Origin: Alphaproteobacteria bacterium | Lineage (GTDB): Bacteria > Pseudomonadota > Alphaproteobacteria > Rickettsiales > SXRF01 | DNA length: 51,113 nucleotides | Reading direction: 5' to 3' | Assembly: GCA_025360345.1 (NCBI GenBank) | Contig: JANYCJ010000170.1 | Location: 1 to 51,113 of the forward strand | Shown: piece by piece, positions 4,780 through 46,553 of the stretch | Position numbering within the stretch: position 1 is the stretch's first letter | How the letters are laid out: each line of letters begins with the position of its first letter | Made by a program: the position numbers and the translations under genes | Notes under the pieces: model-generated | What the model saw: only the letters and a program-made list of their open reading frames with translations | What the model was told of the DNA's origin: nothing | Database searches by the model: none

Positions 4780-5739
4780 ATGAGTGCAACGACACCAACG
4801 CCGCAGGTCTGTATCATCATCGCTGCCTACAACGCCGAAAAAACCATCGCCCGCGCCGTGGCCTCCGCCCTCGCGCAAGGCGAAACCGCCGAAATCGTGG
4901 TGGTAGACGATGCCTCCACCGACCAGACCCTCGCCGCCGCCCTCTCCGCCGACGACGGCACACACCGCCTCAAGCTCCTCCGCCAGCCGCAAAACGCCGG
5001 CCCCTCCGCCGCCCGCAACCGCGCCATCGCCGAAAGCACAAGCCCATGGCTCGCCGTGCTCGATGCCGATGATTTCTTTCTTCCCGGCCGCCTCTGCGGC
5101 CTGCTCCGCCACGCCGAAAACGCGGACTTCATCGCCGATAATATGTGGCAGGTGCCCGAAACCGATATCAACGCCCCCCGCACCTCCCTGCTCGACCCCG
5201 CCCCCACCGCGCCCGAGCACGTGAATTTCGACCGCTTCGTGCTGTCAAACGTCACCCGCCCCGGCAAGCAGCGCGCCGAGCTGGGCTTCATCAAGCCCCT
5301 CATGCGCCGCAGCTTCCTCGACCGCCACAACCTCCGCTATCAGGAACATATGCGCCTCGGCGAAGATTTCGAACTATACGCCCGCGCCCTCGGCCTCGGC
5401 GCGCGTATGCTGCTCCTTCCCGCGCAGGGCTACATCTCCGTCGTCCGCCCCAACTCACTCAGCGGCCAGCACACCGAAACCGACCTCCTCAACCTGCGCG
5501 ACTGCGACCACGCCCTCCTCGCCAGCCTGCCCCTGAACACCTCCGCCAAACAGGCGCTCCGCCAGCATTACCTGAGCCTTGATTGCCGCCTGCAATGGCG
5601 CCTGCTCATCCTCGCCGTCAAGCACCGCAACGTGAAAGCCGCGCTCGCCACCTTCCTGCGCCCATGGCCCGTGCCGCTCTACCTCCTCCGCAAACTGGCC
5701 GAAACTTTCGCCCAGCGTATGCAGGGCGCCCCCGCATGA
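4780..5739 (+). CDS. exoU: Glycosyltransferase family 2, ExoU-like
   Basis: VCIIIAA..A..TIARAVASALA, ADDGT.RL, VLDADDFF.PGRL, DFIADN, ELGFIKPLMRR.FLD.H.LRY, RLGED, VVR.NSLSG.H: colinear with rhizobial ExoU as I recall it. Confidence 0.8.
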   Translation: MSATTPTPQVCIIIAAYNAEKTIARAVASALAQGETAEIVVVDDASTDQTLAAALSADDGTHRLKLLRQPQNAGPSAARNRAIAESTSPWLAVLDADDFFLPGRLCGLLRHAENADFIADNMWQVPETDINAPRTSLLDPAPTAPEHVNFDRFVLSNVTRPGKQRAELGFIKPLMRRSFLDRHNLRYQEHMRLGEDFELYARALGLGARMLLLPAQGYISVVRPNSLSGQHTETDLLNLRDCDHALLASLPLNTSAKQALRQHYLSLDCRLQWRLLILAVKHRNVKAALATFLRPWPVPLYLLRKLAETFAQRMQGAPA

Positions 5740-22627: not shown

Positions 22628-22728
22628 CGTCCCCATGCAATGGTAAGGTATATGTGACCCGTGTGTGGGTCGCATGGTTAATGAAGGCATGTAGCTTTCG
22701 AATTTAAACATCCATGTAGGAGATGACC

Positions 22729-25700
22729 ATGAGTAACTCAATTAATACCAACATTTCCGCCTATTTTGCACAGGCGAATTTGACCACCGCATCCAATGAT
22801 GCTTCCTCATCCGTAGCCCGCCTTTCATCTGGTAACCGCATCGTAAAAGCGTCCGATGACGTGGCCTCACTCGCAACGGGTACTTCGCTCCTCTCCACGG
22901 TTAGCGCCTTGAAAGCCGCTCAGAGCAGCGCTTCGCAGGGTTCCAGCCTCCTCCAGGTGGCAGACGGCGCCCTCGCCCAGATCCAGAACATCTTGCAGCA
23001 GCAGAAGTCCATCGCCCTGCAGGCACGTTCCGGTTCGCTTACCAACTCGGATCGCGGCTTCTTGAACCAACAGTTCCAAGCTCTCGCCGACCAGATCAAC
23101 AGCCTCAGCGACTCCACCTCGTTCAACGGTGTATCGCTGATCAACGGCTCGCTCTCCAACTCCGCACTGGTAGATGACGTGACCACGCAGTCCAAGACTG
23201 CAACCGCCAGCATCAACCTGAGCACCAACCCCGTCGTAAGCGGTGACACCATCACCATCGCCGGCGTGCAGCTCACCGCTACCACCAGCGCAACCCCCAC
23301 TTCTCTCCAGTTCAAAATTGGCGCAACCGCTGCCGACACCGTTGGCAACCTTGCCGCCAAGCTGACTGCCCTCGCCGCAACGCCTACCTATGCCACCTCG
23401 CTCGGCAAGGCAAGCTTCACCGCCCTGGGTTCTCAGCTGCAGATCAACGCCCGCACGGGTGGTGAACTGGGCAACAACTTCGCCATCGACACCAGCGCAG
23501 CCAACAGCTCGCTCATCTCCGGCACCAAAGCCGTAGTTAGCGGCGCCTTCGGTGGTTCCACGGTGAACCTGTTTGCCAACACCGGCGCTTCGCTCGGTTT
23601 CACCAGCGCAACCGCGTCCATCACCTCTGCAACCCCTACTGCCGCCAGCCCCTTCAAAGGCGGCGACAGCATCACGGCAACCATCGGCGGCGGCACTTCG
23701 CAGTCGCTGTATACCCTTGCCAACGGTGACTCCCTGACCACCATCGTCAACGGGATCAACGTGAATGCCACCACCACCGGCATCCATGCTTCGCTCACCT
23801 TCGATGCTTCCAGCAAGCTGTATAACATCCAGCTGCACAGCAACAGTGCAACCGGCGCATTCGCCCTCAACGGCGGTGCAAACTTCTACAACGTGGGCGA
23901 CAAAACCCACGGCCTCAACGGCGCAACCCAGACCCAGACCCTGTTTACCAATGAATATGCGGTAAACAACGTCGTAGCTGGCAACACCGTTGTAGGTGCC
24001 TCGCTCGCCGCTCCCTTCGTAAACGGTGACAGCATCCAGATCTCGGTAGGTACCGGCTCCGCCGAAACCGTGGCAACCGTGGCAACCGGCGACAAGCTGG
24101 CCGATCTCGTGACCAAAATCAACGCCAGCGCAGGCTCCAAGACCCTTGGCCTCTCCGCAGCTTTGAGCAGCAACGGTCAGAACATCGACCTCACCTACTC
24201 CGATTCCACCGGCGCCAACAATCTGCTGATCAACGGCGGCACCAACTTCTTCAACACCGATGCCACCGGCCTGCGCAACACCAACGGTCTGAACAACCAT
24301 GTCAGCACGTTGAACCTGTTTGCTGCTGGCTATGCAACCTCCGCCACCGCAGTATCGGCAGCCACCTCGGCAACCGCAACGCCATTCCAGGATGGTGATA
24401 CGGTTTCGGTAACGGTTCCGGGCCTCAACAGCGGCAACCCCATCACCTTGGGTACCGTAAGTGCCAGCTCCACTCTTGCTGGCCTTGCAACGTCGATCAA
24501 TGCAAGCGCCAACGCACTTGCTAACGGCATCCATGCTGAAGTGGTTCAGGACTCCTCTGGCTTGTTCAACATCTCTCTGAATGTTGCTACAAACACAGCG
24601 GCGAACCTGACCTTTAGCGGCGGCACCAACTTCTTCGCTGGCGCTACCACGCATGGCATCAATCCGGCTGGCGCATCCACCTTCGGTGCACCAGACCAGA
24701 CCCAGAGCCTGTTCAACGCAACCTTCGCCGCAACGCTCACTGCCGGTCAAACGGTATCGAGCGCTGCAACCGCAACGGCTTCCGTGCCCTTCAAGCAGGG
24801 TGACACCTTAAGCGTCACCACCGCAAACGGCTCGGTAAATATTTCCACGGCTCTCGCAGCAGGTGATACCACCCTGCAAAAGATCGCGGACAATATCAAT
24901 GCCCGCGCAGTTGCCGGCCACACTGGCGTAACCGCAGCCTTGACCGCAGATGGTAAGAACATCAACCTTACCTCCGCTACCAAGATCCTGTCGTTCCAGG
25001 GCGGCACCAACTTCTATTCCAACGCTGCAGACACCACCGGTGTGGTGACCAACAGCGGCTTGAACAACAACGCAACCTCGATCGACCTGTTCAACCCCAC
25101 CCTGGCAGCTGCCATCAAGTCTGGTGCTAACCACGCTTATGTACTGTCGGCAGGTGCTTCAACGGCAACCATCCCCTTCAAAGATGGTGACGTTGTTACC
25201 CTTTCCGTCAACGGTGGCTCAACAATCAACATTTCGACCGCGCTTGCCGTAGGCACCACGGTCGATCAGCTGATTGCGAACATCAACGCAACTGCAACCG
25301 CGCAGGCTGCTGGTGTTCACGCAACGTTTGATGCTCAGGATAGCACGCACAGCAACATCAAACTTGTTGTCGATGGCCAGACCAATCAGGCGATCACTAA
25401 CCTGAAGATCTCCACTGCCAACATCAACACCACCAACCTCACGCCGTACACCACGGTAGTTAGCAACAACGTTCAGACTGCCGCTACGGCTACCACGGTG
25501 GGCACTGCCACCTCCACCACAGCCCTCCAGCAGGTCTATGGTCTCAATGGCGGTGAAAACACCGGCTTGGGTTATAACAGCGTGTCCGTGTCCGGCACGG
25601 TCGGCGACAATTTGCTGACCGCCCTGTCCCAGACGCCTGCCAAGATCCTGGTGAGCTTCCCCGACATCGACCCGGCAGCCTTGACGGCGACTGGCAACTT

Positions 25701-27165
25701 TGGTAGCGACGGCAGCGTGTACATCACCGCTGGCGGGCACAAATTTGCCTTCACCACCACGGTGTCTAACGCAAAAGCGGCTGATGAAATTACCATCGGC
25801 TCCACCTTGCGTGAAACCCTGGACAATGCTGTGGCAACCATCAACAACTACGCTCAGAACAATGCCGTCGGCAACGAAGCTTACGATCTGAACCAGATCA
25901 CGGTTTCGCGCAGCGGCAACTCCCTTGTCTTCCAGGGCAAAGGCCTGAGCAACCCCACCAAGTCCAACGGTGCGGCTCTCGACGCCATCACGGTAAGCGC
26001 AGGCTTCACCAACGGTGCCGTTTCGAGCAACTCCGGTCTCTTGAACAACGCCGCCGCGAACTTCGGCGTTGACGCAAGCGCACTGAGCAACAAGGACTTC
26101 AATGGCTTTATCAACGGGTTCAAGGCTTCGTTCACCGGTACGGCGAACACGGTCAACCTGTCGGTTAAAGTAGGTAACTATACCTACACCGCCAGCAACG
26201 TTCCAACGGCCCCCACCAGCAACACGACCATCCGCCTTACCTCGGACGTGTTGAATGATGGTTCCAGCGGCGGGTATTTCGATATCCAGCTCGCCGGAAA
26301 CCAGGGCCAGTCGGTCAATTCGGATCCTGACGCAAAAACCATTGAACAGCGTCTGAACCTGGCCTTCTCCAGCCTGAGCTTCTCCCAGACCCGTACCATC
26401 TCGACCTATAACGGCACGCAGTCTATCGTGTCCAATGGGGCCCGCATCGGTACGTTAATCGGCAGCAAAGTATCGGCACAGCTTGCCTCCTTCTCGGGCA
26501 ACAAGCTGACCGGTATCACGGTAACGGCACCCACCACCAGCAACGGCGACGCTAAGATCAGCCTGACCGTTGACGGTGAGGAGTTCCAGACCACTGCTGG
26601 CCTGGGCACAGAGCTTGGTGCAACCCAAACCTACCGCCTGACCAGCACGACCAACGCCAGCCACTTTATCGACTTCACGACTGGTTCATCCATTGACATC
26701 AGCACTGCCGCAAACGCTCAGGCAGTACAGAAAGCTTTGGGTGATGCCTTCGGAACCGCTAAAGGCGACGGCGCCCTGTCGTTCCAGGTGGGTGCAACCA
26801 GCAATGATACCATTGCTGTAAGCATCGGCAGCGCGAAGACCTCGCAGATTTACGATGGTCAGACGCTCGACGTAGCCACTCAGGAATCAGCCACCACGGC
26901 CAGCGCCGTGTTGGATGAGGCGATCAAGTCCGTCACGGCCCTCCGCGCAAGCGTGGGTGCGTATGGATCACGGTTTAACTTCGCATCAGCCGCTCTGCAG
27001 TCCAGCGTTCAGAATCAGGACGCTGCCCGTGCCCAGCTGCTCGATACGGATATCGCGCTCGAGTCGACAGCGTACGCGACATCGCAAGTTAAGCTACAAG
27101 CTGGTATCTCCGTTCTAGCCCAGGCGAATCAGGCCCTCCAGGCCCTCCTGAAGCTGATCGGTTAA
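22729..27165 (+). CDS. fliC: Giant flagellin (~1478 aa) with five internal repeat domains
   Basis: SINTNISA..AQ.NL...RLSSGNRI..ASDD N-terminus; FQVGA...D, LRA.VGA..SRF, D.DIA.E...VLAQANQ...LLKL C-terminus. AGGAG spacing favours ATG 22729. Confidence 0.96.
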   Translation: MSNSINTNISAYFAQANLTTASNDASSSVARLSSGNRIVKASDDVASLATGTSLLSTVSALKAAQSSASQGSSLLQVADGALAQIQNILQQQKSIALQARSGSLTNSDRGFLNQQFQALADQINSLSDSTSFNGVSLINGSLSNSALVDDVTTQSKTATASINLSTNPVVSGDTITIAGVQLTATTSATPTSLQFKIGATAADTVGNLAAKLTALAATPTYATSLGKASFTALGSQLQINARTGGELGNNFAIDTSAANSSLISGTKAVVSGAFGGSTVNLFANTGASLGFTSATASITSATPTAASPFKGGDSITATIGGGTSQSLYTLANGDSLTTIVNGINVNATTTGIHASLTFDASSKLYNIQLHSNSATGAFALNGGANFYNVGDKTHGLNGATQTQTLFTNEYAVNNVVAGNTVVGASLAAPFVNGDSIQISVGTGSAETVATVATGDKLADLVTKINASAGSKTLGLSAALSSNGQNIDLTYSDSTGANNLLINGGTNFFNTDATGLRNTNGLNNHVSTLNLFAAGYATSATAVSAATSATATPFQDGDTVSVTVPGLNSGNPITLGTVSASSTLAGLATSINASANALANGIHAEVVQDSSGLFNISLNVATNTAANLTFSGGTNFFAGATTHGINPAGASTFGAPDQTQSLFNATFAATLTAGQTVSSAATATASVPFKQGDTLSVTTANGSVNISTALAAGDTTLQKIADNINARAVAGHTGVTAALTADGKNINLTSATKILSFQGGTNFYSNAADTTGVVTNSGLNNNATSIDLFNPTLAAAIKSGANHAYVLSAGASTATIPFKDGDVVTLSVNGGSTINISTALAVGTTVDQLIANINATATAQAAGVHATFDAQDSTHSNIKLVVDGQTNQAITNLKISTANINTTNLTPYTTVVSNNVQTAATATTVGTATSTTALQQVYGLNGGENTGLGYNSVSVSGTVGDNLLTALSQTPAKILVSFPDIDPAALTATGNFGSDGSVYITAGGHKFAFTTTVSNAKAADEITIGSTLRETLDNAVATINNYAQNNAVGNEAYDLNQITVSRSGNSLVFQGKGLSNPTKSNGAALDAITVSAGFTNGAVSSNSGLLNNAAANFGVDASALSNKDFNGFINGFKASFTGTANTVNLSVKVGNYTYTASNVPTAPTSNTTIRLTSDVLNDGSSGGYFDIQLAGNQGQSVNSDPDAKTIEQRLNLAFSSLSFSQTRTISTYNGTQSIVSNGARIGTLIGSKVSAQLASFSGNKLTGITVTAPTTSNGDAKISLTVDGEEFQTTAGLGTELGATQTYRLTSTTNASHFIDFTTGSSIDISTAANAQAVQKALGDAFGTAKGDGALSFQVGATSNDTIAVSIGSAKTSQIYDGQTLDVATQESATTASAVLDEAIKSVTALRASVGAYGSRFNFASAALQSSVQNQDAARAQLLDTDIALESTAYATSQVKLQAGISVLAQANQALQALLKLIG

Positions 27166-33005: not shown

Positions 33006-35786
33006 ATGAGTCTATATGGAGCATTATACGCAGGCGTAGCAGGCTTGGGTTCTCAGAGTAACAAGCTCGGTGTTATTTCCGATAACATCGCCAACGTGAA
33101 CACCATCGGCTACAAGGCCAACAACGCGGTGTTTGAAACCCTCGTCACCTCTGCCAGCAACGTCACCGCCTACTCCCCCGGCGGCGTACTCGGCGGCAAC
33201 GACCAGCTGGTAGACACCCAAGGCCTGCTGCAAACCACCTCCTCGCCCACCGACGTAGCTATTTCCGGCGGCGGCTTCTTCGTCACCAACCAGAAAGCCG
33301 ACCAGAGCGGCTCCGTGGCCTTCACCCGCGCCGGTTCCTTCACGCAGGACGCGCAGGGCAATTTCCGCAACACCGCCGGCCTGTTCCTTCAGGCATGGCC
33401 GCTGGACAGGAACGGCAACCTCCCCGGCGCTCCCGGCAACCTCAACACCAACTCCGCCGCCAACATCTCCAGTTTGCAGACCGTCAACGTCCGCAACCTG
33501 ACCGGTACCGCCTCCCCCACCACCAATGTCGGCATCGGCGCCAACCTGAAGTCTTCGCAGGTGGCCTTCTCCGGCGCAGGCGGCACCGCCTCGCTGGACG
33601 TGTTCGACCTGTCGAACTCCCCGCTTAAAGGCAACGACGTCATCATCCCCAGCAGCGTGGATAAGCTCACCCGTGGCGATGCCTTCACCGTCGCCACCGG
33701 CGCAGGCCAGAGCTATATCTACAACTACGGCGGCCTCACCTTTGGCCGCAGCGTGCTCACCGGCGCACTGGGTGACAGCGGTGTAGCCCTCACCCCGACC
33801 TCGGTGAACCTCAACAACACCACGCAGGCCGTGGGCGCCAACGGCATCACCACCACGTCTACCACAGTAGGCGCATCCGTCGTGCGGGTGACTGTGGCCG
33901 CCACCGCCAACCTCCGCACCGGCGACTGGGTCACCATCACCGGCGCACCCGTAGCGGGCGTCGATGGCGTAAACCAGGCGCAGTTGAACGGCGCGCACCA
34001 GATCACCGTCACCGGCGCCACCACTTACACCTTCGTAAGCACCGGCACGGCGCTCACCGGCAACAGCACCGTCACCGGCGGCCCGGCCTCCTCCGCCCCC
34101 GACCCCTTCGCCATTGTAAACGGCTCCAAAGTGGTCACCGTCACCCAGATTGCCCATGGCCTGAACACCGGCGATGTGGTGAAATTCTCTGGCATCAGTG
34201 CTCCCGTCGGCAACGTGCCCGCTAACGAGCTGAACGACAGCTTCGTCATCACCTCGGTGGATGCCGACCACTACACCATCACCCTGCCTACCACCACCGC
34301 GAACTCAACCACGGCAGGAGGCACCGGCACCATCACCAACACGGAGCGCCCCTTCGCCGCCGCAGGCAAAATCCTCGACGCGGTAAATGCCTCGCAGCCT
34401 TTCCTCGGCACCACCGGCACGGCAGGCTTCACGCAGGCAGCGCTGAGCTTCACCATCACCACCGCCGCATCCGGCACCACCACCTTCACTTACACCCCCA
34501 CCGCGCCCAATGCGCAGCTGGGTCAGTTCAACAACCTCAACAACCTCGCCGACGCCATCAACAACGTCAGCGGCCTCACCTCCCGCGTGGTCGACGGCCA
34601 GATCTATATCGGGCCCAAAGACGCCAACGCAGCCGTGAGCTTCGCCAACGTCTCCACCATCGGCAACAGCGGCCCTCCAGTGAAAGCCGGTATCGACTGG
34701 GTCAAGGAACTGGGCCTCGCCCCCGTTTCCAGCGGCCTGAACCGTTTCAACTCGCTCCAGTCGCTGACCAACCTGGTGAACCTGTCCACCGGCCTGAACG
34801 CCACGCTTTCCAATCCTCTGGGCGCTTCATCGGTCAGCATCAACGTCACCGACCCGCTGGACACCATCAAGTTCACCGACAACAACAGCAATACTGGCAG
34901 CGTGCTGGCACAGCTGGGTCTGGTAACTTCGCTCAACGCCGGGGTATTCGCTCCTAAAACCACCGGCTCCCTCGGGCCGGCATACGACCCCGCCAACTCA
35001 GCGAAGAACATGGCCTCCGGCGCCATTCCCCCGCAGTTCAGCCGTCCCGTGACCGTGTATGACGCACTCGGCACCGCGCACAACCTGAACGTGGGCTTCC
35101 TGAAAACCAGCTCCAATGCATGGGCAGTGGAAGTATATGCACAGCCCGCCAGTGACGTGAATTCCGCATTGCCAAATGGCCAGATCGCCAGCGGCACGCT
35201 GTTGTTCAACGGTGACGGCTCCCTGCGCAGCATCAGCCAGTCTTTGCTCGGTGCGCTCAACGTCAACTGGACTAACGGCTCCGCAGCAACCGCCATCACC
35301 TACAACTGGGGCACGGCAGGCCAGCCTTTCGGCACGCCGAACGCCGCGGCCATTGGTAAAACCGACGGCATGAGCCAGTTCGATTCCGGTTACAACGTAA
35401 GCTTCGTGAACCAGAATGGTGCGCCCGTGGGCCAGCTCACCGGCATTGCCATTGATGCGAACGGCTTTATCTCCGCTAGCTACAGCAATGGTGAAACCTC
35501 CAAGCTGTATAAAATCCCCCTTGCCTCCTTCACCGATCCGAACAGCCTCACCAGCGCCTCGGGCAACGCCTACCAGCAATCGAACGGTTCCGGCGGTGTA
35601 AACCTCAAGGAAGCGGGCACCAGCGGCGTGGGTTCCTTCGCAGCAGGCTCGTTGGAATTATCCAACGTGGAATTGGCCAGCCAGCTCACCGATATGATCG
35701 TGGCCCAACGTGCGTATCAGGCAAATACAAAAGTAATTCAAACCGCCGATACGCTGCTCGACTCCCTCGACCAGCTCATCCGGTAA
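33006..35786 (+). CDS. flgE: Flagellar hook protein FlgE (extended, 926 aa)
   Basis: GV.GL..Q...L.VISDNIANVNTIGYK, D.AISGGGFF, FTRAGSF, VYDALG..H, LELSNVELA.QLTDMIVAQRAYQANTKVI. Confidence 0.96.
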   Translation: MSLYGALYAGVAGLGSQSNKLGVISDNIANVNTIGYKANNAVFETLVTSASNVTAYSPGGVLGGNDQLVDTQGLLQTTSSPTDVAISGGGFFVTNQKADQSGSVAFTRAGSFTQDAQGNFRNTAGLFLQAWPLDRNGNLPGAPGNLNTNSAANISSLQTVNVRNLTGTASPTTNVGIGANLKSSQVAFSGAGGTASLDVFDLSNSPLKGNDVIIPSSVDKLTRGDAFTVATGAGQSYIYNYGGLTFGRSVLTGALGDSGVALTPTSVNLNNTTQAVGANGITTTSTTVGASVVRVTVAATANLRTGDWVTITGAPVAGVDGVNQAQLNGAHQITVTGATTYTFVSTGTALTGNSTVTGGPASSAPDPFAIVNGSKVVTVTQIAHGLNTGDVVKFSGISAPVGNVPANELNDSFVITSVDADHYTITLPTTTANSTTAGGTGTITNTERPFAAAGKILDAVNASQPFLGTTGTAGFTQAALSFTITTAASGTTTFTYTPTAPNAQLGQFNNLNNLADAINNVSGLTSRVVDGQIYIGPKDANAAVSFANVSTIGNSGPPVKAGIDWVKELGLAPVSSGLNRFNSLQSLTNLVNLSTGLNATLSNPLGASSVSINVTDPLDTIKFTDNNSNTGSVLAQLGLVTSLNAGVFAPKTTGSLGPAYDPANSAKNMASGAIPPQFSRPVTVYDALGTAHNLNVGFLKTSSNAWAVEVYAQPASDVNSALPNGQIASGTLLFNGDGSLRSISQSLLGALNVNWTNGSAATAITYNWGTAGQPFGTPNAAAIGKTDGMSQFDSGYNVSFVNQNGAPVGQLTGIAIDANGFISASYSNGETSKLYKIPLASFTDPNSLTSASGNAYQQSNGSGGVNLKEAGTSGVGSFAAGSLELSNVELASQLTDMIVAQRAYQANTKVIQTADTLLDSLDQLIR

Positions 35787-38468: not shown

Positions 38469-38544
38469 GGGCCGTTAGCTCAGTCGGTAGAGCGGTTGAC
38501 TCTTAATCAATAGGTCGCTGGTTCGATCCCAGCACGGCCCACCA
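38469..38544 (+). tRNA. tRNA-Lys(CTT)
   Basis: 76 nt, GGGCCGT acceptor stem, anticodon arm with CT-CTT-AA loop, GTTCGA T-loop, encoded CCA. Confidence 0.96.
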
Positions 38545-38587
38545 TCAAATTCAAAGACTTATAATTCCCGTCAAAAAACGAAAAATG

Positions 38588-38609
38588 GCGGGGGTTAGGC
38601 GGGGGTTAG
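38588..38609 (+). repeat. Putative integrase arm-binding sites
   Basis: Tandem GCGGGGGTTAG x2. GGGGTTAG recurs at 46368 and 46379, and inverted at 46416. Confidence 0.7.
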
Positions 38610-38749
38610 AATGCATCCGGCATATCTCCCAGGTTTTCATATCCATTTCGTCTGTTGCTCCCTGTCGATAATTATCTTGTCGCTTGTCGCGCCCATACCC
38701 CTCTGTTAGTGTCCGCAACGAAGTAGCCGCAGTGGGCTGCTTCCGGGTG

Positions 38750-38915
38750 TAGTGATCCGTCTAAGAACGTTCTATGCGTCACGTCACGACGCTGCTTTCC
38801 GTCCCTTTGGGCCGGGAGGCGGCGGCGAGGTGCTGTGCAAGCAGTGCTTTGGATGTCCAAACTCCGGCTAAAGGCCGTCGCAATCGTTTCTTAGCGATTC
38901 ACTAACTCCCGCGCC
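38750..38915 (+). ncRNA. Candidate pseudoknotted structured RNA, copy A (family not recognised)
   Basis: Same helix order and conserved loop as copy B, with compensatory changes; upstream TTGTCG-N17-TAGTGT promoter-like site at 38684-38712. Confidence 0.65.
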
Positions 38916-38968
38916 ACCAGAGGGTCATTCCCTTCTGGCTGGCTTCTTGTGCCAGAGAAGGAGGAATC

Positions 38969-39769
38969 ATGTCATTAAAGCCTTGCCGCGAATGCGGGGA
39001 ACAAATCAGCTCACATGCGCGTAATTGCCCTAAGTGTGGGATCAAAAAACTAATCAATAAAAAAACATTATGGCTTCCTCTCGGCCTAGGGCTTTTTACT
39101 ATACCCATCGCATATACCTTTGCCCCACCGGTTACGGTACTGCGAGTCAAAGCGGAATTAGGGTTTGCCGAAGCGCAATATCGCTTCAGCCGTATCTATC
39201 ATAATGGTGATGGCGTACCGCAAAATTCTGAAGAGTCATTCAAGTGGCTTCAAAAAGCCGGTGAAGGCGGTAATGCGGAGGCACAAAAAAGTCTTGGTTT
39301 TATCTATCGAACCGGGGAAGAAATACCAAACGGCAAAGAAGTGGTGCGCGACGATGTAAAAGCAAAAGAATGGTATAAAAAGGCTGCGGCTCTCGGCGAT
39401 ACGGAAGCGCAATTTATTCTGGGCACGGTCTATCACGAAAGCCAGAATTTACCTACTCGCGAGGGCAGCTGTGCCTGGACAGTTATAACCGAGATTGGAC
39501 ACAGGCTCCAGGACGGAGCAAATGGCTTTGGCATTCCCGGTTCTGGTTCCTCAGTTCAATATTCCAATGGCGGTTTTCAAGTATCATATGATGAGGTTGA
39601 TGCAGTTACACATTCTCGTACAGGCGACAAGGTAATTATTTGCTTAATTGAAGCACCAAGAAACTGCCCAGCGGGCGACATTAGAGGTTACGCTTATATT
39701 ACAACCAATCTTCGGATAATGGAGTCGTGGATAATGGGTGACTCTTCGCATAGCTGCGGAGGTGCTTAA
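38969..39769 (+). CDS. Zinc-ribbon / TM / Sel1-repeat protein with a Cys-containing C-terminal domain
   Basis: CRECG..IS..A..CPKCG, one TM segment, AEAQY...Y..G.GV.QN..E...W..KA.E.G..EAQ..LG repeats; AAGGAGG RBS. Confidence 0.8.
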   Translation: MSLKPCRECGEQISSHARNCPKCGIKKLINKKTLWLPLGLGLFTIPIAYTFAPPVTVLRVKAELGFAEAQYRFSRIYHNGDGVPQNSEESFKWLQKAGEGGNAEAQKSLGFIYRTGEEIPNGKEVVRDDVKAKEWYKKAAALGDTEAQFILGTVYHESQNLPTREGSCAWTVITEIGHRLQDGANGFGIPGSGSSVQYSNGGFQVSYDEVDAVTHSRTGDKVIICLIEAPRNCPAGDIRGYAYITTNLRIMESWIMGDSSHSCGGA

Positions 39770-39813
39770 TTGCATGGGAAAGGATTATCAATGTCGCTAA
39801 AATCATTCATCCA

Positions 39814-39950
39814 TATCGTAAGTGGTCCTAGTGCACCGCTAAGCACTCTTCTTCCGTTATGGTCGAGGAGGCGCATGTGTATGTTCAAGCCTCGGCTAAA
39901 GACATGCGCGACCTCTCTTACGATAGTTTTACAAACTCCTCGATAACCAT
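39814..39950 (+). ncRNA. Candidate pseudoknotted structured RNA, copy B
   Basis: Helices TATCGTAAG/CTTACGATA, GCGCATGT/ACATGCGC and TCGAGGAG/CTCCTCGA (crossing); loop ATGTTCAAGCCTCGGCTAAAG. Confidence 0.65.
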
Positions 39951-39965
39951 CGCGGGAGAATTCAT

Positions 39966-40694
39966 ATGCCTAAATCAAAATGTTATGCCCTGATATGGGC
40001 GCCACTATTTTTATGGGGATGTGTAAACCCACAGGTGGAGGAGTATAAGCAACAGTGTGTCGCTGGTGCGCGAGAAACAGAAAAGACAACCCAAGGTAAA
40101 TCGGTCGCTCAATGGTCAAAAACTTATACGGCAAGCCCAGACACTAAACCAGCATACATGCGCGGTTTATCTAATTCAGCGCGCTCATGCGCAGAGGTTT
40201 TGAACGCAAGCCCCGATTTCCAACACGAAGTTGGTTTTTTAACAGGCTTTGCCGACTCAATTGAGAAGGAATACATGGGAAAAGAAAAAGCTCGATTCTT
40301 TAAGAAAGCTGACGGAAGAAAATTCTGTACGGGTCAGCAGAAAAACCCCATGGATAGCGAAATAGTCAGTTTTTTCTATTATCCTAACGCTATGCCATTG
40401 GATGATTGCATTTACATGCTGGCACCCAATGCAATGCCGCTTACTGTTATGCAAACATTGCCAGAAGGCGTTTTAGTTACTGCGCGATGGACGCAGGTGC
40501 CTGGAAAAATTATGTTTATATACAATGATAACAAGAAAGAAAATATGCTCGCAGACGGTGCGGGTGTTGCTCCAGGATATTTTGTTTATGCTGGAAAGTA
40601 TCCTTATGTTAGTATCACCGGCCATCGGAGCGTTTATGCCTTTCGGCGCATTGATAATCCATCAGAAGGAAATGCATTTTTCAGCGGATATTAG
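39966..40694 (+). CDS. Hypothetical lipoprotein
   Basis: Basic N-terminus, hydrophobic stretch, LWG|C lipobox; GGAG RBS. Confidence 0.7.
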   Translation: MPKSKCYALIWAPLFLWGCVNPQVEEYKQQCVAGARETEKTTQGKSVAQWSKTYTASPDTKPAYMRGLSNSARSCAEVLNASPDFQHEVGFLTGFADSIEKEYMGKEKARFFKKADGRKFCTGQQKNPMDSEIVSFFYYPNAMPLDDCIYMLAPNAMPLTVMQTLPEGVLVTARWTQVPGKIMFIYNDNKKENMLADGAGVAPGYFVYAGKYPYVSITGHRSVYAFRRIDNPSEGNAFFSGY

Positions 40695-41107
40695 CTTTTT
40701 ATAAAAGCATTATAAGCAATTGTAGCTTCTTCCAGCGTTATGGGTTCTGGGTGAAGCGTTTTGCAAGGAGAGCATGCAATTGAGTTTTCGATCCGTCCTT
40801 CGGTATAATAGATAAGCATCTGTAGGTTACGGGCATTCATGCAGGTTAAAGCATTTTTGAGCATGCCTACCGCGATTAATCTTGCTGGCGTAGTCATACC
40901 GTTTCCCATCTTTTCCAATCGGCGAAATTCGGTAGGAAGGTCCATGGGGTCGATCATCTGTTTTGCTAGATATTTTAGCTCGGCGCGGATTAAATAAAAT
41001 TCTTTCTTACCTTTACGTCCAGCCGCGGCAGCGTCCATAGATCTGGCGCCAAAACGAGTATGTGTTCCAAATTCGGCAATGTTTGGATTCCCACGATGAC
41101 TGGGCAT
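40691..41107 (-). CDS. Hypothetical protein, possibly terminase small-subunit-like
   Basis: GNPN...TRFG...AAAAGRKG N-terminus reminiscent of phage TerS-type proteins; follows the replication genes. Confidence 0.4.
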   Translation of the reverse strand: MPSHRGNPNIAEFGTHTRFGARSMDAAAAGRKGKKEFYLIRAELKYLAKQMIDPMDLPTEFRRLEKMGNGMTTPARLIAVGMLKNALTCMNARNLQMLIYYTEGRIENSIACSPCKTLHPEPITLEEATIAYNAFIKS

Positions 41108-41287
41108 TTTCAACCGTTCCTTATTTGCATCATCAAGGAATTTATCAATTTACCTAGAAGTTTTGGGTCAGAGATGTGCTAAGGTAAGCAATAGCAGGCA
41201 GGTAGATAGACTCAGGATGCGTTACCTACTGTAATATTCCTATACCCTTTCACGAAGAAAGCCAAATCTACCGAAGAATTCCATGTT

Positions 41288-42448
41288 TTATGTATGGCAC
41301 TCTTCGATATTATTGGCATCCTTCGCAGGGAGTAGTATCCACACCCACCCCTGATCCATACCTTGTTTCTTTGCTTTGATGCCCAATTCATCCTTAGCAC
41401 GCTTGATAGTACGCTGCGCTATGCAGGCATCGGCAGCCTGCTTATAAACCTCCTTTGCGCTTACAGGCCCTTCCGCCAATACCTCGCGCAAGAAATTTAT
41501 TGCATCCTGTAAAGCACTCTTTTCTTCTTTACCGTTCCCGGCCTGTCCTTGCTCCGCCAGCACATCATTAGCTGTTTGGTGAACGATGGCATCTTCCCAA
41601 ACGATATAAGAGGTTTCAATACCGCTTTTCAATGTACAGGGCTTTATACTGAAGGCTAGGCCAGTGCGATCATTGCCGATATTATTCTTGATGGGCAGAA
41701 ATAGACGACGGGAGGGTTCTGCGCTATCGGCACCGACAAAGAATGCCGCACGCGCCGCCGCAACAAAAGCCAGGCTGCCGGTGACGCGCATCATTGCTTC
41801 ATTACCAGCAGATTTATTCAAATGGGAGATACATACCAGTGCTACATTGCGCCGCGCTGCCATTTCAGCCAAAGGGGCTAACATGCCACGGACATCAGCA
41901 GTTTTATGACTATCTACGCCGCCCATATAGGCTGTAATAGGGTCAATCACTACCAGAGCAATATCAGGTTTTTCTTCAAGCAATTGATCGAGCCGTGCTA
42001 TATCTTCCTGTAAAGTAAAGCTTCTTTGTTGCGCCTTGCCTTCCTTATCCAGGCTGGACACTGAATCGAGAATAAAAATACGTTTAGAATCAGCGCCAGC
42101 CGCATCCATTCGAGGTCGGATAGTATCAGCAGCATCATCTTCAGCACTGAGGAAGGCCACGTCACCTAACTCGCAATTACCACCATTAGCGGGCCATCCA
42201 CCACCCGTAGTAACAATAGCCGCAAGACTAGCTGTAAGCTGGCTTTTCCCTAAACCGGGATTTCCGGCAATCATGGTGAGTTTTCCACGAGCTATCATCC
42301 TCGGCCACAACCAGTAAACTGGCTTTGGCTGAATATCAGACATGCGACGATAGTTGATGCCAGATTTTCCCACGCTGGCATTTTTCTTGGTTGATGTTTC
42401 TTCCCACGCGCTATCTGCTGCATTAAATGCATTTTCAGGCTTAATCAT
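41288..42448 (-). CDS. AAA_25 / RepA-like helicase
   Basis: Walker A GNPGLGKS, SAEDD...TI.PR..AAGAD, Walker B LVVIDP, HLNK, GSLAFVAAAR; ATGA-coupled to the primase. Confidence 0.88.
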   Translation of the reverse strand: MIKPENAFNAADSAWEETSTKKNASVGKSGINYRRMSDIQPKPVYWLWPRMIARGKLTMIAGNPGLGKSQLTASLAAIVTTGGGWPANGGNCELGDVAFLSAEDDAADTIRPRMDAAGADSKRIFILDSVSSLDKEGKAQQRSFTLQEDIARLDQLLEEKPDIALVVIDPITAYMGGVDSHKTADVRGMLAPLAEMAARRNVALVCISHLNKSAGNEAMMRVTGSLAFVAAARAAFFVGADSAEPSRRLFLPIKNNIGNDRTGLAFSIKPCTLKSGIETSYIVWEDAIVHQTANDVLAEQGQAGNGKEEKSALQDAINFLREVLAEGPVSAKEVYKQAADACIAQRTIKRAKDELGIKAKKQGMDQGWVWILLPAKDANNIEECHT

Positions 42449-43338
42449 ACGGTATACCTTTTGGCAATATCTGCCCAATCGAGACCGAACTTAGATGGCG
42501 TCACAATCCGAACTTCATGCCCCGCAGTGTGCCAGCGTTTTTCGCACCGTTGAGCGGCTATTAACCCTGCCTTATCGTAGTCAGCAAAAATGGTAAGACT
42601 TTCAATTCCCGGCAACACCGGAAAGTTGGCAATATTGCTAGCATCGACCGCTGCCCATACTGGACCCCAACCCGCTGCCATGACCGCCAAAGCGGTTTCA
42701 ATACCTTCTCCAATACCTAGCCCCAGCAACACATTAACATCATCAGTAAGGCGTATCACACCCCCTGTCTTGCGGTGTCCTTTCAGCAGCACCTTAGGGC
42801 GTTCCACCGGCGCTTTACCGCTACCGTCTTCTAGAAGCAGTGTAAAATGAAGGGAGAGGGGTTTTCCTGTTAAAGCGTCCGTGATACGCGCCACCATTGC
42901 CGGATACCATGATTTTTTCGCAGGCAAAAATCGCAGGTCAGCATGGTTTGGAATTAAGCAGCCTCGGCTACGCAAATAACTTTCTGCCGGGGTTCCGATG
43001 ATAGGTATGGTTGATCGCCAGTTATGATCGGCACGCTCAGACCATTCAAGCGAATTGCCACGGATGGTCGCTTCATTTGTTTTGAGTTGTTTGCCAACTA
43101 TATGAAGCCGCTTCATATTAGCACCGTCAATTAATCCCATTCGGCGCAGTGCTGTAAACACGTCACGCGCATCACAACCCGCGAAGCAATGCACCAGCAG
43201 ACGTCCACCGTCTCCATCGGCGACACTTAACGACGGGTTATGATCATCATGGGCAGGACAAGGTATCAACCAACCATTGCCGTTTTTTATGCCGCCAAGA
43301 ACGCGGGCTAAGGCTTCCGCAATGACCTTGTAATCCAT
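42445..43338 (-). CDS. Primase-like protein (zinc finger + Toprim)
   Basis: CPAHDDHNPSLS...HCFAGC zinc finger, YLRSRG, IGEGIETALA, IFADYD, DWAD. Confidence 0.88.
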   Translation of the reverse strand: MDYKVIAEALARVLGGIKNGNGWLIPCPAHDDHNPSLSVADGDGGRLLVHCFAGCDARDVFTALRRMGLIDGANMKRLHIVGKQLKTNEATIRGNSLEWSERADHNWRSTIPIIGTPAESYLRSRGCLIPNHADLRFLPAKKSWYPAMVARITDALTGKPLSLHFTLLLEDGSGKAPVERPKVLLKGHRKTGGVIRLTDDVNVLLGLGIGEGIETALAVMAAGWGPVWAAVDASNIANFPVLPGIESLTIFADYDKAGLIAAQRCEKRWHTAGHEVRIVTPSKFGLDWADIAKRYTV

Positions 43339-43346
43339 GGCTAGCC

Positions 43347-43568
43347 TTACTCTGCTGCGCTTATAGTACGTGATGTAAGGAAGCGTTCTACCGCTTCACG
43401 CTTATAACGCACTAAACGGCCTACCTTGATATATTCCAGCTCAGGGTATCGTTTGGTTGAGCGCCATACCTCTAAAGTATGGGCGCTTTTCAGGTCAAGT
43501 AAACGCGCCGTTTCTTCAGAGGTAAGAAGGTTTCTATCGGTGAAATTTGTAGAAGTTATTGTAGCCAT
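43347..43568 (-). CDS. AlpA/excisionase-like HTH protein
   Basis: LLT..E.A..L.....TL..WR......L.YIKVGRLVRY....V..FL; AAGGA RBS. Confidence 0.85.
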   Translation of the reverse strand: MATITSTNFTDRNLLTSEETARLLDLKSAHTLEVWRSTKRYPELEYIKVGRLVRYKREAVERFLTSRTISAAE

Positions 43569-43737
43569 GATGAACATCCTTTGGTTAGGTTAAAGATGTT
43601 CAGATAATATGCATAAAATCTAGAGTGTCAGCCCCGCCAGCGGTTCAAGGGATACCCCTCGGAGGGGGCGGAGGGGACAGGCGACGACAACCACCGTTAT
43701 CATTAATCGATACTGCTGCTGCCTTTAGTAAAAGCAT

Positions 43738-44199
43738 TTATGCAGGTGGAGTGGCATCCTTATTGCGGTCAATGTATGCAATTACACGCCGACATAGCGC
43801 AACGAATTCATCATGATTCAAATCATTTTTTGCATCATTCGTGCGCCAGCCACAGATTTTAAAATCTGCTTCGCCGAGGCCGTCGCCGACATGATCGACA
43901 GTTGGTAGCAGAGCTAGCGATTTCTTATAATGACGGCCATGAGCTTTTGATTCATCGTTATTATATTGACGAATTAAAGACCAATCGAGATTTTCGCCGG
44001 TGTAATAATCAGCGCCATCAGAGACAACAACAGCCGTATGAATTGCTATTTTATAGGACTCATTGGTCGCTGTCACATTGCCGCGCTTCCGATCACGTTT
44101 CACATGAGCAACGGCTTTCCTATGAAGCCATTTTTCATAATTATCCTGCGTTAGCAATGTAGATAGAAATGTGGGAAGTTTATATTTACGTTCAGTCAT
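43738..44199 (-). CDS. Hypothetical protein with HNH-like nuclease motif
   Basis: DYYTGE.L...PTVDH...ICGWRTNDAKND....EF...C. Confidence 0.55.
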   Translation of the reverse strand: MTERKYKLPTFLSTLLTQDNYEKWLHRKAVAHVKRDRKRGNVTATNESYKIAIHTAVVVSDGADYYTGENLDWSLIRQYNNDESKAHGRHYKKSLALLPTVDHVGDGLGEADFKICGWRTNDAKNDLNHDEFVALCRRVIAYIDRNKDATPPA

Positions 44200-44225
44200 T
44201 ATTAGTCATTCACCTCATCCCACAG

Positions 44226-44915
44226 CTATTTACTATTGCCGCCTTGCCTTGCAACGGGACAGCGAATAATTGTATCCATCATATCGGCGCGTGATTTACT
44301 GAATCCGGCTATACCGCGCTTTTTTGCCTCTTCCATAAGCCAATTTACAACCGAATTTTTAAACGGAGCCTTGCTAGCATCAGGCTTGGTTAGATCGTAA
44401 TCTTTCCAAAATTTTTCTACCGCATCATGCATCAGTTCCATATCCGGCGTACAGTATGAGAGTTTTGCTTTATGTTGTTTTGGAACGTTTTGATTTATAG
44501 TGACTTCGTGTTGTTTGATAATCTCGGCTAGCGCAGGCGGAATAGTAAAGTGCTTGCTTTTTGCCCACCCAATCCATTTCTGGCGATGGCATTTAAGATT
44601 GTGATATTGGCCTAACCAATCAATTTCACGATGGCCTAACTCATTCATAGCTATAGTGGTAAAATCGATGTAGCTCTGCCGAAGTTGAGTGTCGCTAATA
44701 TATTTTAACTGTGTGCCGCCACAATCTAATGGCTCGAACCCATGTATCAGCGCTGCCGCTTCCCATAATGTCCAATCATTTTTTCTTGTCCAGAAATCGT
44801 AACGAGGGTTAAGATTTTCGGGAGGCACGTTTTTAGCCGTGAGATGAGCATTCTGTAGCAATTCAAAATAATTTATATCTGAAGTGGGGGTATCTTTTTT
44901 GGGTTTGTTGCTCAT
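44226..44915 (-). CDS. Hypothetical protein
   Basis: 229-aa ORF coupled to the integrase stop; WTLWEAAALIHG.EP motif seen in island proteins. Confidence 0.65.
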   Translation of the reverse strand: MSNKPKKDTPTSDINYFELLQNAHLTAKNVPPENLNPRYDFWTRKNDWTLWEAAALIHGFEPLDCGGTQLKYISDTQLRQSYIDFTTIAMNELGHREIDWLGQYHNLKCHRQKWIGWAKSKHFTIPPALAEIIKQHEVTINQNVPKQHKAKLSYCTPDMELMHDAVEKFWKDYDLTKPDASKAPFKNSVVNWLMEEAKKRGIAGFSKSRADMMDTIIRCPVARQGGNSK

Positions 44916-46348
44916 TTTTTCCTCATCGCAATTACTTCCGCCGATGGCATCACACCCGCCGCGCCGAATATGGCGGTGAGGGCTTTATTCCGCGCCTGTA
45001 TCACAGGGTCTTGTTGCAGGCGTGAATAGACAGCGGTAGCAGTTGCCGATTTATGATTAAGCTGCCGTCCGATAATAACTGTGGATGCGCCTGTGCCTGC
45101 CATCCAGCTGCCGAGTGTGCGCCGCAGGTCATGGATACGGAGATTACGTAGGCCGAGGGCAGTGATATCCAGTTTCAGCTTATTAGCTATATCCCGGTAT
45201 TCTGATATTGCCTGCCCCAGCCTGCCGATAGCTTCGATTTTAGCTTCCTGTATTTTTTCTATGTCCCATTTGTTAGTCTCAGCGATTAGCCCGATAAGCT
45301 GAAATAGCTCTGTCCGCGCTAATATGCGTTCCCAGCCCTTGCGGGGTTCGACAAGATGCCCGGCGCTGCCAGCGCTGGGGAATACCCATTTGCTGGCATT
45401 AGCGGCTAACTTTACCTCATATTCCCCGGCATCTTTATCGGCTGCCCTGGCCTTGTATTCTTTGATTTTGGCTTTACGGTTTTCCAGTATCCGCAGCATG
45501 GCGCCCTGTGTGTCATCTAGCGATATAATTTGCGGAGTGCCGTTCTTGGTTTCCGGTATGCGCCATTCTTTGCGCTCGAAGCTGATCTCATCCCAACGCA
45601 TTGCCATCAAATTGGATCGCCGGACGCCGGTCAGTAACAATAGCATGAAATAATCCTGTAATAATTCGCTGGGCTCATGCGCCAATGACTCGAAAAATAC
45701 AGGCAATTCCTCCGATTGAATGAAGCGGTCGCGGGATTTCTCTGGAAATTTACGAATGCCCTGAGCAGGGTTTTGCTTGTTCCATAACCCCCATTCGATG
45801 GCTCGCCCGAATACGCCGCTGATAAGCGCCAATACGCGATTGGCAATGATAGGGCGGGTCTTACCAAGATCGGAATGCAAATTCGCTATATCTGTCTTTG
45901 TGATACGGGACAGCTTGCGCGAACTGATTTTGGTATAATCCTGAATATAGCGCCGGTAGTTGTGATGATCGGCTTCCCAGCTCTTTTTATGCGGCTTTGC
46001 CCAACGTTCAAGATATACGTCAAAAAGTTGCTTGAACGTCATTTCCGCTTTATCTGCCCGTATAGCATCATTGGGGTTTTCTTTGTTAGCGATGGCCGCA
46101 TTGATCGTCGTCGCTTTTTCCCGCGCTTTTTCTATGGATAAGTCAGGAAACCGCCCCAGCGTCACCCGTTCCGGCTTACCTTCAGTGGAAACCCACCGAT
46201 AAACGCTGAAAGTCTTAACGCCATTGCCGGTGACGCGTAATTGCAGGCCGTTAATCTTGGAATCATGATAGGTATCACGATCCCCCATTTTCGGCAGGGG
46301 TAACCCCTCTATATTACTCTTATTAAAAGTGATAATCCTCTTTGCCAT
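44912..46348 (-). CDS. int: Tyrosine integrase (P4-like, N-terminal arm-binding domain)
   Basis: D....GL.LRV...G.K.F...R.TLG.FP.LS...AR arm domain; catalytic R (TGVRR), K (TKNG), HDLRR, LNH, Y. Confidence 0.93.
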   Translation of the reverse strand: MAKRIITFNKSNIEGLPLPKMGDRDTYHDSKINGLQLRVTGNGVKTFSVYRWVSTEGKPERVTLGRFPDLSIEKAREKATTINAAIANKENPNDAIRADKAEMTFKQLFDVYLERWAKPHKKSWEADHHNYRRYIQDYTKISSRKLSRITKTDIANLHSDLGKTRPIIANRVLALISGVFGRAIEWGLWNKQNPAQGIRKFPEKSRDRFIQSEELPVFFESLAHEPSELLQDYFMLLLLTGVRRSNLMAMRWDEISFERKEWRIPETKNGTPQIISLDDTQGAMLRILENRKAKIKEYKARAADKDAGEYEVKLAANASKWVFPSAGSAGHLVEPRKGWERILARTELFQLIGLIAETNKWDIEKIQEAKIEAIGRLGQAISEYRDIANKLKLDITALGLRNLRIHDLRRTLGSWMAGTGASTVIIGRQLNHKSATATAVYSRLQQDPVIQARNKALTAIFGAAGVMPSAEVIAMRKK

Positions 46349-46505
46349 ACCAGCCCTTTCATCTATGGGGGTTAGTTCGGGGTTAGGAGGAGTGTGCAGT
46401 TTCAATAATTTTTACCTAACCCCATAGAGGTTTTGATAGCGGTAAGATATAGTTCTGTAAAGTATTATTGAGATTGATAAATCAACGTGCCGCATCTATA
46501 ACAGA

Positions 46506-46553
46506 GACTCTTAATCAATAGGTCGCTGGTTCGATCCCAGCACGGCCCACCAT
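46506..46553 (+). repeat. att site: duplicated 3' part of tRNA-Lys
   Basis: GACTCTTAATCAATAGGTCGCTGGTTCGATCCCAGCACGGCCCACCAT, identical to 38498-38545. Confidence 0.95.

Follow-up and report, generated by a model that had tools for sequence, protein, structure and literature searches.

In a 51,113-nt stretch of DNA from an alphaproteobacterium of the order Rickettsiales (contig JANYCJ010000170.1 of assembly GCA_025360345.1; hereafter the window), two RNA elements, A (about 38720-38943) and B (39814-39949), lie on the plus strand within an island of mobile DNA, each directly upstream of a plus-strand gene (gene 1 and gene 2, respectively). The 3' ~90-100 nt of the element, from a Shine-Dalgarno (SD)-like strand g2 to a final RCCA, is a remote homologue of the small RNA (sRNA) sRNA-Xcc1 (Rfam RF02221) and folds into a three-way junction whose closing helix is g2:c3 (9-10 bp). 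The 5' domain has four parts: a terminal hairpin, a short pairing g1:c1, a small H-type pseudoknot, and a strand whose pairing with the hypervariable loop of the sRNA gives helix P1. We consider A and B to be, with fair probability, diverged copies of a widespread leader RNA of mobile elements that has an sRNA-Xcc1-related 3' half and gates its own downstream gene.

A and B share a covarying plus-strand fold

A first-pass annotation of the same DNA had described A and B as two copies of an unrecognised pseudoknotted element, either RNA or single-stranded DNA (ssDNA), with an outer helix, a small hairpin, an inner helix around a conserved loop and a long-range GGAG/CUCC pairing. Both elements do lie where it placed them, on the plus strand and immediately ahead of their genes. 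Element A and its surroundings comprise the following parts.

38684-38712, +, promoter-like site (TTGTCG, 17 nt, TAGTGT preceded by TG; weak, 8/12)
38720-38728 with 38735-38743, +, P0, the 5'-terminal hairpin (by eye)
38744-38769, +, 5' domain
38744-38747 with 38756-38759, +, g1 with c1 (RNAalifold, columns 2-5 with 14-17)
38749-38755, +, 5' strand of the P1 extension (by eye and upstream complementarity test)
38761-38769, +, 5' strand of P1 (covariation count)
38767-38792, +, small H-type pseudoknot
38767-38770 with 38781-38784, +, S1 (covariation count)
38776-38780 with 38788-38792, +, S2 (by eye)
38795-38801, +, pyrimidine strand c2
38809-38818, +, SD-like strand g2
38819-38826 with 38874-38881, +, P3 (covariation count)
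38827-38852, +, A-specific 26-nt hairpin within the P3 loop
38853-38860, +, conserved strand AUGUCCAA
38861-38873, +, P3a plus UAAAG
38885-38894, +, 3' strand of P1
38898-38906, +, 3' strand of the P1 extension
38906-38915, +, c3; its helix with g2 closes the sRNA-Xcc1-like domain
38916-38919, +, ACCA
38913-38924 with 38930-38943, +, terminator-like hairpin, then a U-rich run; overlaps the 3' end of c3

Element B lacks P0 and g1:c1 and is composed as follows.

39814-39822, +, 5' strand of P1
39823-39826 with 39835-39838, +, S1
39831-39834 with 39843-39846, +, S2
39846-39855, +, c2
39861-39870, +, g2
39871-39878 with 39902-39909, +, P3
39879-39888, +, conserved GUAUGUUCAA
39889-39896, +, P3a
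39897-39901, +, UAAAG
39910-39913, +, GACC
39917-39925, +, 3' strand of P1
39926-39935, +, 3' strand of the P1 extension
39936-39945, +, c3, 10 bp with g2
39946-39949, +, ACCA

On the plus strand, A folds at -75.0 kcal/mol (z -4.09), a value reached by 0/200 dinucleotide shuffles, and B at -44.6 kcal/mol (z -3.65; 1/200), whereas the minus strand does not stand out (z -1.74, 10/200 shuffles, for A; z -1.51, 19/200, for B), in agreement with a structured plus-strand RNA. In the minimum free energy (MFE) fold, c2 and g2 of A are able to form a local hairpin. Inspection by eye revealed a hairpin of variable sequence at the position of P0 in most relatives, and hairpins resembling the terminator-like hairpin of A are likewise present in relatives.

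Direct comparison of A with B gave a best common block of 19/24 nt, which is unconvincing alone, and a covariance model made from B alone (R1) found B-type relatives and missed A as a whole. A BLAST search with 38546-40000 against the genomes of 150 relatives returned many matches coinciding with A or B at 70-87% identity, and a second covariance model, R2, was built from 26 of these matches. In the genome of origin (2.49 Mb, 80% complete) R2 matched two places only, B with 141.7 bits and A with 50.4 bits (38759-38912; E 1.4e-9); only this family model ties A to B. Beyond this genome, R2 detected 62 matches in 27/44 genomes of the family (1-5 per genome), and it matched 68/151 genomes and 52/105 genera of the order sample with up to 21 copies per genome, 26/151 genomes of the class sample (a tally that includes the unpublished genome G226) and 18/151 genomes of the phylum sample, other classes among them. 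A strict pattern derived from the alignment furthermore found the element on 57 viral contigs of IMG/VR, where ~1 chance match was estimated, and all 57 contigs were confirmed by R2 (58 matches). The search with covariance models, which the first-pass annotation had proposed, uncovered a large family whose stems covary.

Covariation was counted over 68 distinct homologues in 29 pairs, namely those of P1, S1, P3 and P3a and four pairs of g2:c3. Paired combinations filled 96.7% of the cells, compared to 69.1% after shuffling of the columns and 36-41% after sliding of the partners against each other, and 26/29 pairs showed double-sided changes; the covariation score of 0.742 (0.212 in shuffles) was reached by 0/500 shuffles. 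The result was replicated in 52 distinct viral copies that lay outside model building (93.5% paired, compared to 69.5%). Since S1 and g2:c3 are absent from the structure of the model, the alignment was not fitted to these helices. The outer helix P1 was paired in 95.8% of cells with double-sided changes in 9/9 pairs, and the 8-bp inner helix P3, for which compensatory changes had been claimed, in 98.7% with 8/8. The long-range pairing of GGAG with CUCC (g2:c3) was paired in 98.9% and covaries at its outer positions (columns 84/199: GC 16, CG 9). The small hairpin after P1 is genuine as well: S1 was paired in 96.4% of cells with double-sided changes in 4/4 pairs, and together with S2, seen by eye, it makes up the H-type pseudoknot, of which the hairpin is one half. 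P0 and the outward extension of P1 were also seen by eye, and g1:c1 by eye and with RNAalifold. The conserved loop holds up in the 68-row alignment, as does the extra hairpin of A (38827-38852), which occurs in none of the other rows.

Most of the anatomy given in the first-pass annotation was borne out; two of its pairings did not survive. The inner GGTC/GACC part of the outer helix of B (P1b) was paired in 83.3% of cells, compared to 80.3% in shuffles, and the pairing of TTCCG with a loop CGG was rejected because that CGG lies in the covarying P3a stem. Three features disfavour an ssDNA element: the G-U pairs, an orientation that is fixed with respect to the gene that follows, and a promoter-like motif described below. 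A leader peptide running from the conserved AUG to UAA was also considered and rejected because the length of P3a varies and the frame is lost, and neither ARAGORN nor Rfam supported a tmRNA or a tRNA T-arm. A 58-amino-acid (aa) open reading frame (ORF) starting with TTG (39770-39946) overlaps B; it belongs to no Pfam family, and the covariation pattern favours RNA over coding.

The element is multi-copy and often stands in tandem ahead of small cassette-like genes. At one locus (L113; G148:C20:1-3000) the leader and a gene for a 141-aa membrane protein are tandemly duplicated 879 nt apart, which indicates that leader and gene duplicate as a block. At another (L132, 2768-3128), sub-threshold matches to the CRISPR-repeat model RF01322 (24.5-26.5 bits; cut-off 45) recur at ~65-nt spacing ~1.2 kb from a leader copy. 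A three-block pattern run over genome contigs produced 11 matches in unrelated taxa, none with the helices, where ~20 were estimated to arise by chance. In plasmid blastn, B had no match and 643 IncF-type records matched 38-41 nt of A; what they have in common is a GC hairpin close to repA of IncFII, any broader likeness to A is missing, and the match was judged to be chance. Two relatives of A and B had no match in phage blastn.

The 3' half is a remote relative of sRNA-Xcc1

A permissive Rfam scan of 20 loci of relatives matched RF02221 over model positions 1-87 in 13/20, with 26-40.6 bits. In the phylum sample, RF02221 itself matched 41/151 genomes at E ≤ 0.01, 24 of them above the cut-off and mostly of another class, and it matched none of 14 control genomes; its sub-threshold matches in the genomes G014, G412 and G011 coincide with R2 matches. 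In the printed alignment, g2:c3 takes the position of the closing helix of the Rfam structure, P3/P3a that of stem 2, and the 3' strand of P1 that of the hairpin 3 loop. The elements accordingly have the three-way junction of RF02221, with a closing helix of ~9 bp, a stem 2 that contains an internal loop and ends in a hairpin, and a hairpin 3, and they share with it a location in mobile elements directly upstream of a gene. The pseudoknot of the first-pass annotation is thus the closing helix of the sRNA-Xcc1 family, and the element, which had been described as unrecognised, has in its 3' half a remote relative of RF02221. By the curated cut-off A and B fail membership of RF02221, yet they are tied to the family through intermediates.

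sRNA-Xcc1 has stood in Rfam for more than ten years as a virulence-linked sRNA of Xanthomonas. In their available parts, the published reports describe it as an 88-nt RNA of Xanthomonas campestris that was recovered by cDNA cloning, seen on Northern blot and mapped at its ends in Xcc 8004 (PMC2996969), and place it upstream of symE in the most widespread integron cassette of Xanthomonas (10.1101/2025.06.18.660453), ahead of an ORF6N gene in APSE phages (10.1101/2020.03.17.996009) and at seven sites in Xylella Temecula1; a different Xylella strain has it next to annotations of C4 and IsrK (PMC12189769). The available portions of the literature on the RNA give no mechanism for it.

The A/B group and canonical sRNA-Xcc1 agree in the three-way junction with its closing helix, in the long stem, which carries a small hairpin and an internal loop, in a third hairpin with a variable loop, in occurring in multiple copies, and in being found in phages, islands and integron cassettes a short way ahead of a gene, as far as the accessible parts of the reports show (10.1101/2025.06.18.660453, 10.1101/2020.03.17.996009, PMC12189769); canonical loci, too, have an upstream complementary strand. 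They differ in the conserved loop sequence, in the ~60-100 nt of conserved 5' domain that the A/B family has beyond the 87-position Rfam model, and in two features that the A/B group lacks: a terminator-like hairpin with a U-run between the 5' domain and the sRNA of canonical loci, and a second copy of the target that canonical loci often carry at the ribosome-binding site (RBS).

An upstream strand complements the variable loop of the sRNA

Bona fide RF02221 loci have a TTGAC-type box, g1:c1 and an upstream strand complementary to the variable region of the sRNA. In an exact-match test, the upstream complement was found in 14/20 canonical loci at p ≤ 0.05 and in 39/66 loci of the A/B group. 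For a second, downstream copy of the target the canonical count was 6/20 at p ≤ 0.05, with additional cases recognised by eye, and there it sits at the RBS of the following gene. Downstream repeats of the P1 5' strand were absent from the A/B group. P1, the most variable helix, behaves like an antisense specificity element. Ahead of the closing helix there is mostly a U, and RCCA comes directly after it. In canonical loci L191-L210 a hairpin and U-run lie ~60-90 nt upstream of the RF02221 match and divide the 5' domain from the sRNA, so that a short transcript consisting of the 5' domain alone may occur as well.

This arrangement resembles that of the CI RNA of the satellite P4 and the C4 RNA of phages P1 and P7. 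The available parts of the relevant reports give the P4 CI layout as an upstream complement, the sRNA and a downstream complement, with seqA and seqC (PMC4825925), and describe CI and C4 as hairpin-like substrates of RNase P (PMC5499578). As in these systems, a short structured RNA lies in the leader of a mobile-element operon with its complement upstream (PMC4825925, in the part available), and the 9-10 bp helix, mostly with U before and RCCA after it, bears a likeness to such RNase P substrates (PMC5499578, likewise). The A/B island also has P4-like genes, for an integrase, an HTH_17 protein and a Toprim primase. It differs in that A and B head cargo genes and not a replication operon, that the A/B group has no downstream target copy and that C4 (RF01695) gave no match, either in the window (E ≤ 10) or in 20 loci (E ≤ 5). 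Of the two marks of a C4/CI RNA, a match to the family model and target sites on both sides of the sRNA, neither was found for the A/B group. New in our analysis are the pairing of the 5' domain with the variable loop of the sRNA, the promoter-like motif at a fixed distance and the layout like that of P4 CI and phage P1 C4. The portions of the sRNA-Xcc1 literature available to us, which do not extend to Chen et al. 2011, hold no description of the 5' domain, the promoter link or a C4/CI-like logic.

The element lies in a leader-like position

An SD-linked ORF follows on the same strand within 260 nt in 62/68 instances. Upstream, a promoter-like motif (TTG.., 17-20 nt, TAnnnT) was present in 46/92 instances, compared to 3.6% of shuffles, and in 30/46 it begins 54-57 nt before g1. 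Two types of 3' platform stand behind the same core, as judged by eye: in the B type, an SD complementary to c3 lies 8-12 nt after RCCA, and in the A type, the 5' arm of a hairpin followed by a U-run overlaps c3. At one locus (L050), the sequences of g2, c3 and the SD have changed in concert.

What follows the leader is a heterogeneous set of genes. Among 57 downstream proteins scanned there were four large serine recombinases, four pilin-like proteins and single Sel1, outer-membrane, BamE-like and methyltransferase proteins, and at least 35/57 belong to no Pfam family; some match PHROGs of unknown function. About 17/62 downstream proteins have a lipoprotein-like start (by eye). In another class, a downstream gene encodes a BRO-N/antirepressor-like N-terminus (by eye) and an XRE-type regulator is also present, and viral copies precede the same mix of genes. 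Two protein families recur after the leader. One, of ~93 aa and without a Pfam match, was encoded in 9/57 cases (L044, L046, L063, L065, L073, L094, L095, L096 and L108); the other, of ~170-210 aa, follows a variant leader in viral contigs (L141, L143, L151, L152, L156, L162, L163, L174, L185 and L188).

A model of cis gating and its alternatives

From the arrangement of strands in the sequence, we propose that the leader would gate its downstream gene in cis through competing pairings, in which three SD-like G strands (g1, g2 and the SD) could pair with three anti-SD-like C strands (c1, c2 and c3). When g2:c3 is formed, the SD of gene 2 would be free in B and the terminator-like hairpin of A would lose its base; when c2:g2 is formed, as in the MFE fold, c3 could cover the SD, or the terminator-like hairpin could form. 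An RNA of ~88 nt would probably be released from the leader, as in Xanthomonas; the cut may fall at the base of the closing helix, with U before G and RCCA after the helix. The balance between the pairings could be set by this processing, by released sRNA acting on nascent leaders, by a protein or by a ligand. B may be read through from gene 1, given that it lacks a consensus promoter.

A number of results weigh against A and B being gating leaders of the sRNA-Xcc1 family. The Rfam check gave a divided answer: relatives did match RF02221, all of them under its gathering cut-off of 53 bits, and A and B themselves matched no Rfam family, RF02221 included, even at E ≤ 10; in their own genome there were zero RF02221 matches at E ≤ 0.01. 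Conversely, R2 recognised 14/20 bona fide RF02221 loci at E ≤ 1, with low scores of 11.5-26.1 bits. The stem of hairpin 3 (P4 in the numbering of helices) was only moderately supported (85.3% paired, compared to 79.5%). The downstream target copy that a C4/CI layout needs was found in 3/66 loci of the A/B group, which is chance level. A consensus scan of 38545-40000 returned no promoter-like and no terminator-like site, and B has no consensus promoter. Finally, the link in length between c3 and the SD is weak, an SD with four G accompanying four C in 10/35 cases and three C in 0/9, and a CUCC strand is complementary to any SD.

A bolder version, which we put forward tentatively and consider doubtful, takes the whole sRNA-Xcc1 superfamily to be a portable cassette of a promoter, a 5' decoy and an RNase P-released sRNA with a copy-specific seed, regulating its own gene only, with the A/B group as a derived branch. 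Such a cassette would be carried along with the cargo genes of phages, islands and integrons in two or more classes of Pseudomonadota, RNase P would release the sRNA from a mimic of the tRNA acceptor (the 9-10 bp helix, then RCCA), and in the A/B group an anti-SD strand or a terminator would have replaced the RBS target of the seed.

A riboswitch for a small molecule, an ion or a second messenger, with the internal loop of P3/P3a as its pocket and an envelope or mobile-element regulon under its control, would account for the conserved unpaired nucleotides on covarying helices and for the SD-type and terminator-type platforms behind one core. Up to 21 copies in one genome ahead of heterogeneous genes are also reminiscent of second-messenger switches, and pseudoknotted-aptamer riboswitches similarly share the 3' strand of the pseudoknot with an SD-sequestering or terminator hairpin and conserve junction nucleotides. 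Here, however, no class of downstream gene points to a ligand, at least 35/57 having no Pfam family and the rest being recombinases, pilin-like and envelope proteins that do not fall into one pathway; the element travels with phages and islands, its related RNA is a discrete 88-nt sRNA (PMC2996969, in the part available), and a hypervariable, copy-specific P1 is unexpected for an aptamer. Covariation in the core is strong, the platforms were recognised by eye and the link between c3 and the SD is weak. We regard a riboswitch as unlikely. A self-cleaving ribozyme or a DNA element, either an attC-like site or a miniature inverted-repeat transposable element (MITE) with the outer helix as its terminal inverted repeat, would fit the multiple, often tandem copies before small cassette-like genes and the occurrence of sRNA-Xcc1 inside integron cassettes (10.1101/2025.06.18.660453, in the part available). 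Neither the window nor 20 loci of relatives matched an Rfam ribozyme, inspection of the sequence by eye showed no attC core sites, the stems vary and the loops are conserved, which is the opposite of a MITE, G-U pairs and significant folding are confined to the plus strand, and the orientation to the gene is fixed; explanations of this kind are extremely unlikely. The ribozyme or riboswitch suggested by the first-pass annotation thus gained no specific support, the downstream genes being heterogeneous mobile-element genes and P1 antisense-like.

The RNA could instead be a free-standing, trans-acting sRNA gene for distant mRNAs, possibly acting via Hfq, its position before a gene being incidental; this is how the literature presents sRNA-Xcc1, which the title of Chen et al. 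2011 reportedly describes as trans-acting. The Xylella copies, for which targets have been predicted and which are abundant in vesicles, are in line with this, as far as the available part of the report goes (PMC12189769). Such a role would leave unexplained why an SD-linked ORF follows so closely and always in one orientation (62/68), why a conserved 5' domain and a promoter-like motif precede the sRNA part, and why the copy-varying seed matches its own upstream strand (39/66; 14/20), and we find it improbable. A leader that binds protein, offering a CsrA/RsmA-type or element-encoded regulator sites in the GGA strands (g2 and the SD) and in GUAUG(G/U)UC, a motif present twice, is very unlikely: conserved single-stranded motifs and SD-like strands are present, and two GGA sites are typical of CsrA targets, but no partner protein co-occurs in the loci examined and the covarying fold is more elaborate than such sites require.

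The island and its surroundings

That A and B lie in an island of cargo genes was borne out by a 48-nt exact direct repeat, in which the 3' part of a tRNA-Lys gene (38498-38545) recurs at 46506-46553; repeats of the tRNA 3' end thus delimit an 8-kb island. At its tRNA end are two plus-strand genes, with A preceding gene 1 and B preceding gene 2. The gene set as a whole is presumably comparable to that of P4-type satellites.

38469-38544, +, tRNA-Lys(CTT) (ARAGORN, Rfam)
38958-38964, +, SD of gene 1
38969-39769, +, gene 1, 266 aa; zinc ribbon, membrane span, Sel1 repeats
39954-39958, +, SD of gene 2, GGGAG, complementary to c3 of B
39966-40694, +, gene 2, 242 aa; lipoprotein-like N-terminus, no Pfam family
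40691-46553, -, remaining island, containing genes and the right repeat
41288-42478, -, AAA_25 ATPase
42445-43338, -, Toprim/DUF7146 primase
43347-43577, -, HTH_17 protein
44912-46405, -, tyrosine integrase
46506-46553, right repeat of the island

A search for related loci found no relatives of gene 2 in viral contigs. Two inverted repeats were observed around the elements. One, of 20 nt and 90% complementary (38668-38687 / 39620-39639; ~0.01 expected per 4 kb by a rough estimate), has one arm over the -35 region of the promoter-like site of A and the other within gene 1. The other, a perfect repeat of 12 nt (39782-39793 / 40649-40660), is part of a 25-nt, 76% repeat; it flanks B and gene 2 and may be chance (~0.5 expected). 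Elsewhere in the window are a flagellar cluster with a giant flagellin-like protein of 1480 aa (22723-27165) and a FlgE-like hook protein of 926 aa (33006-35786), and a VPLPA-CTERM exosortase XrtD (5583-7325).

Implications

In the 151-genome phylum sample, R2 matched further copies below the RF02221 cut-off, mostly in the class to which A and B belong. If our reading is true, the family would be far wider than the curated RF02221 model shows and common on phage contigs, annotation based on RF02221 would miss whole lineages, and the sRNA would be the 3' half of a larger pseudoknotted leader with its own complementary strand. This leader would gate accessory genes in cis, among them genes for lipoproteins, pilin-like proteins, recombinases and antirepressor-like proteins, much as P4 CI and phage P1 C4 do, and the reading would also suggest a set of naturally orthogonal RNA regulators.

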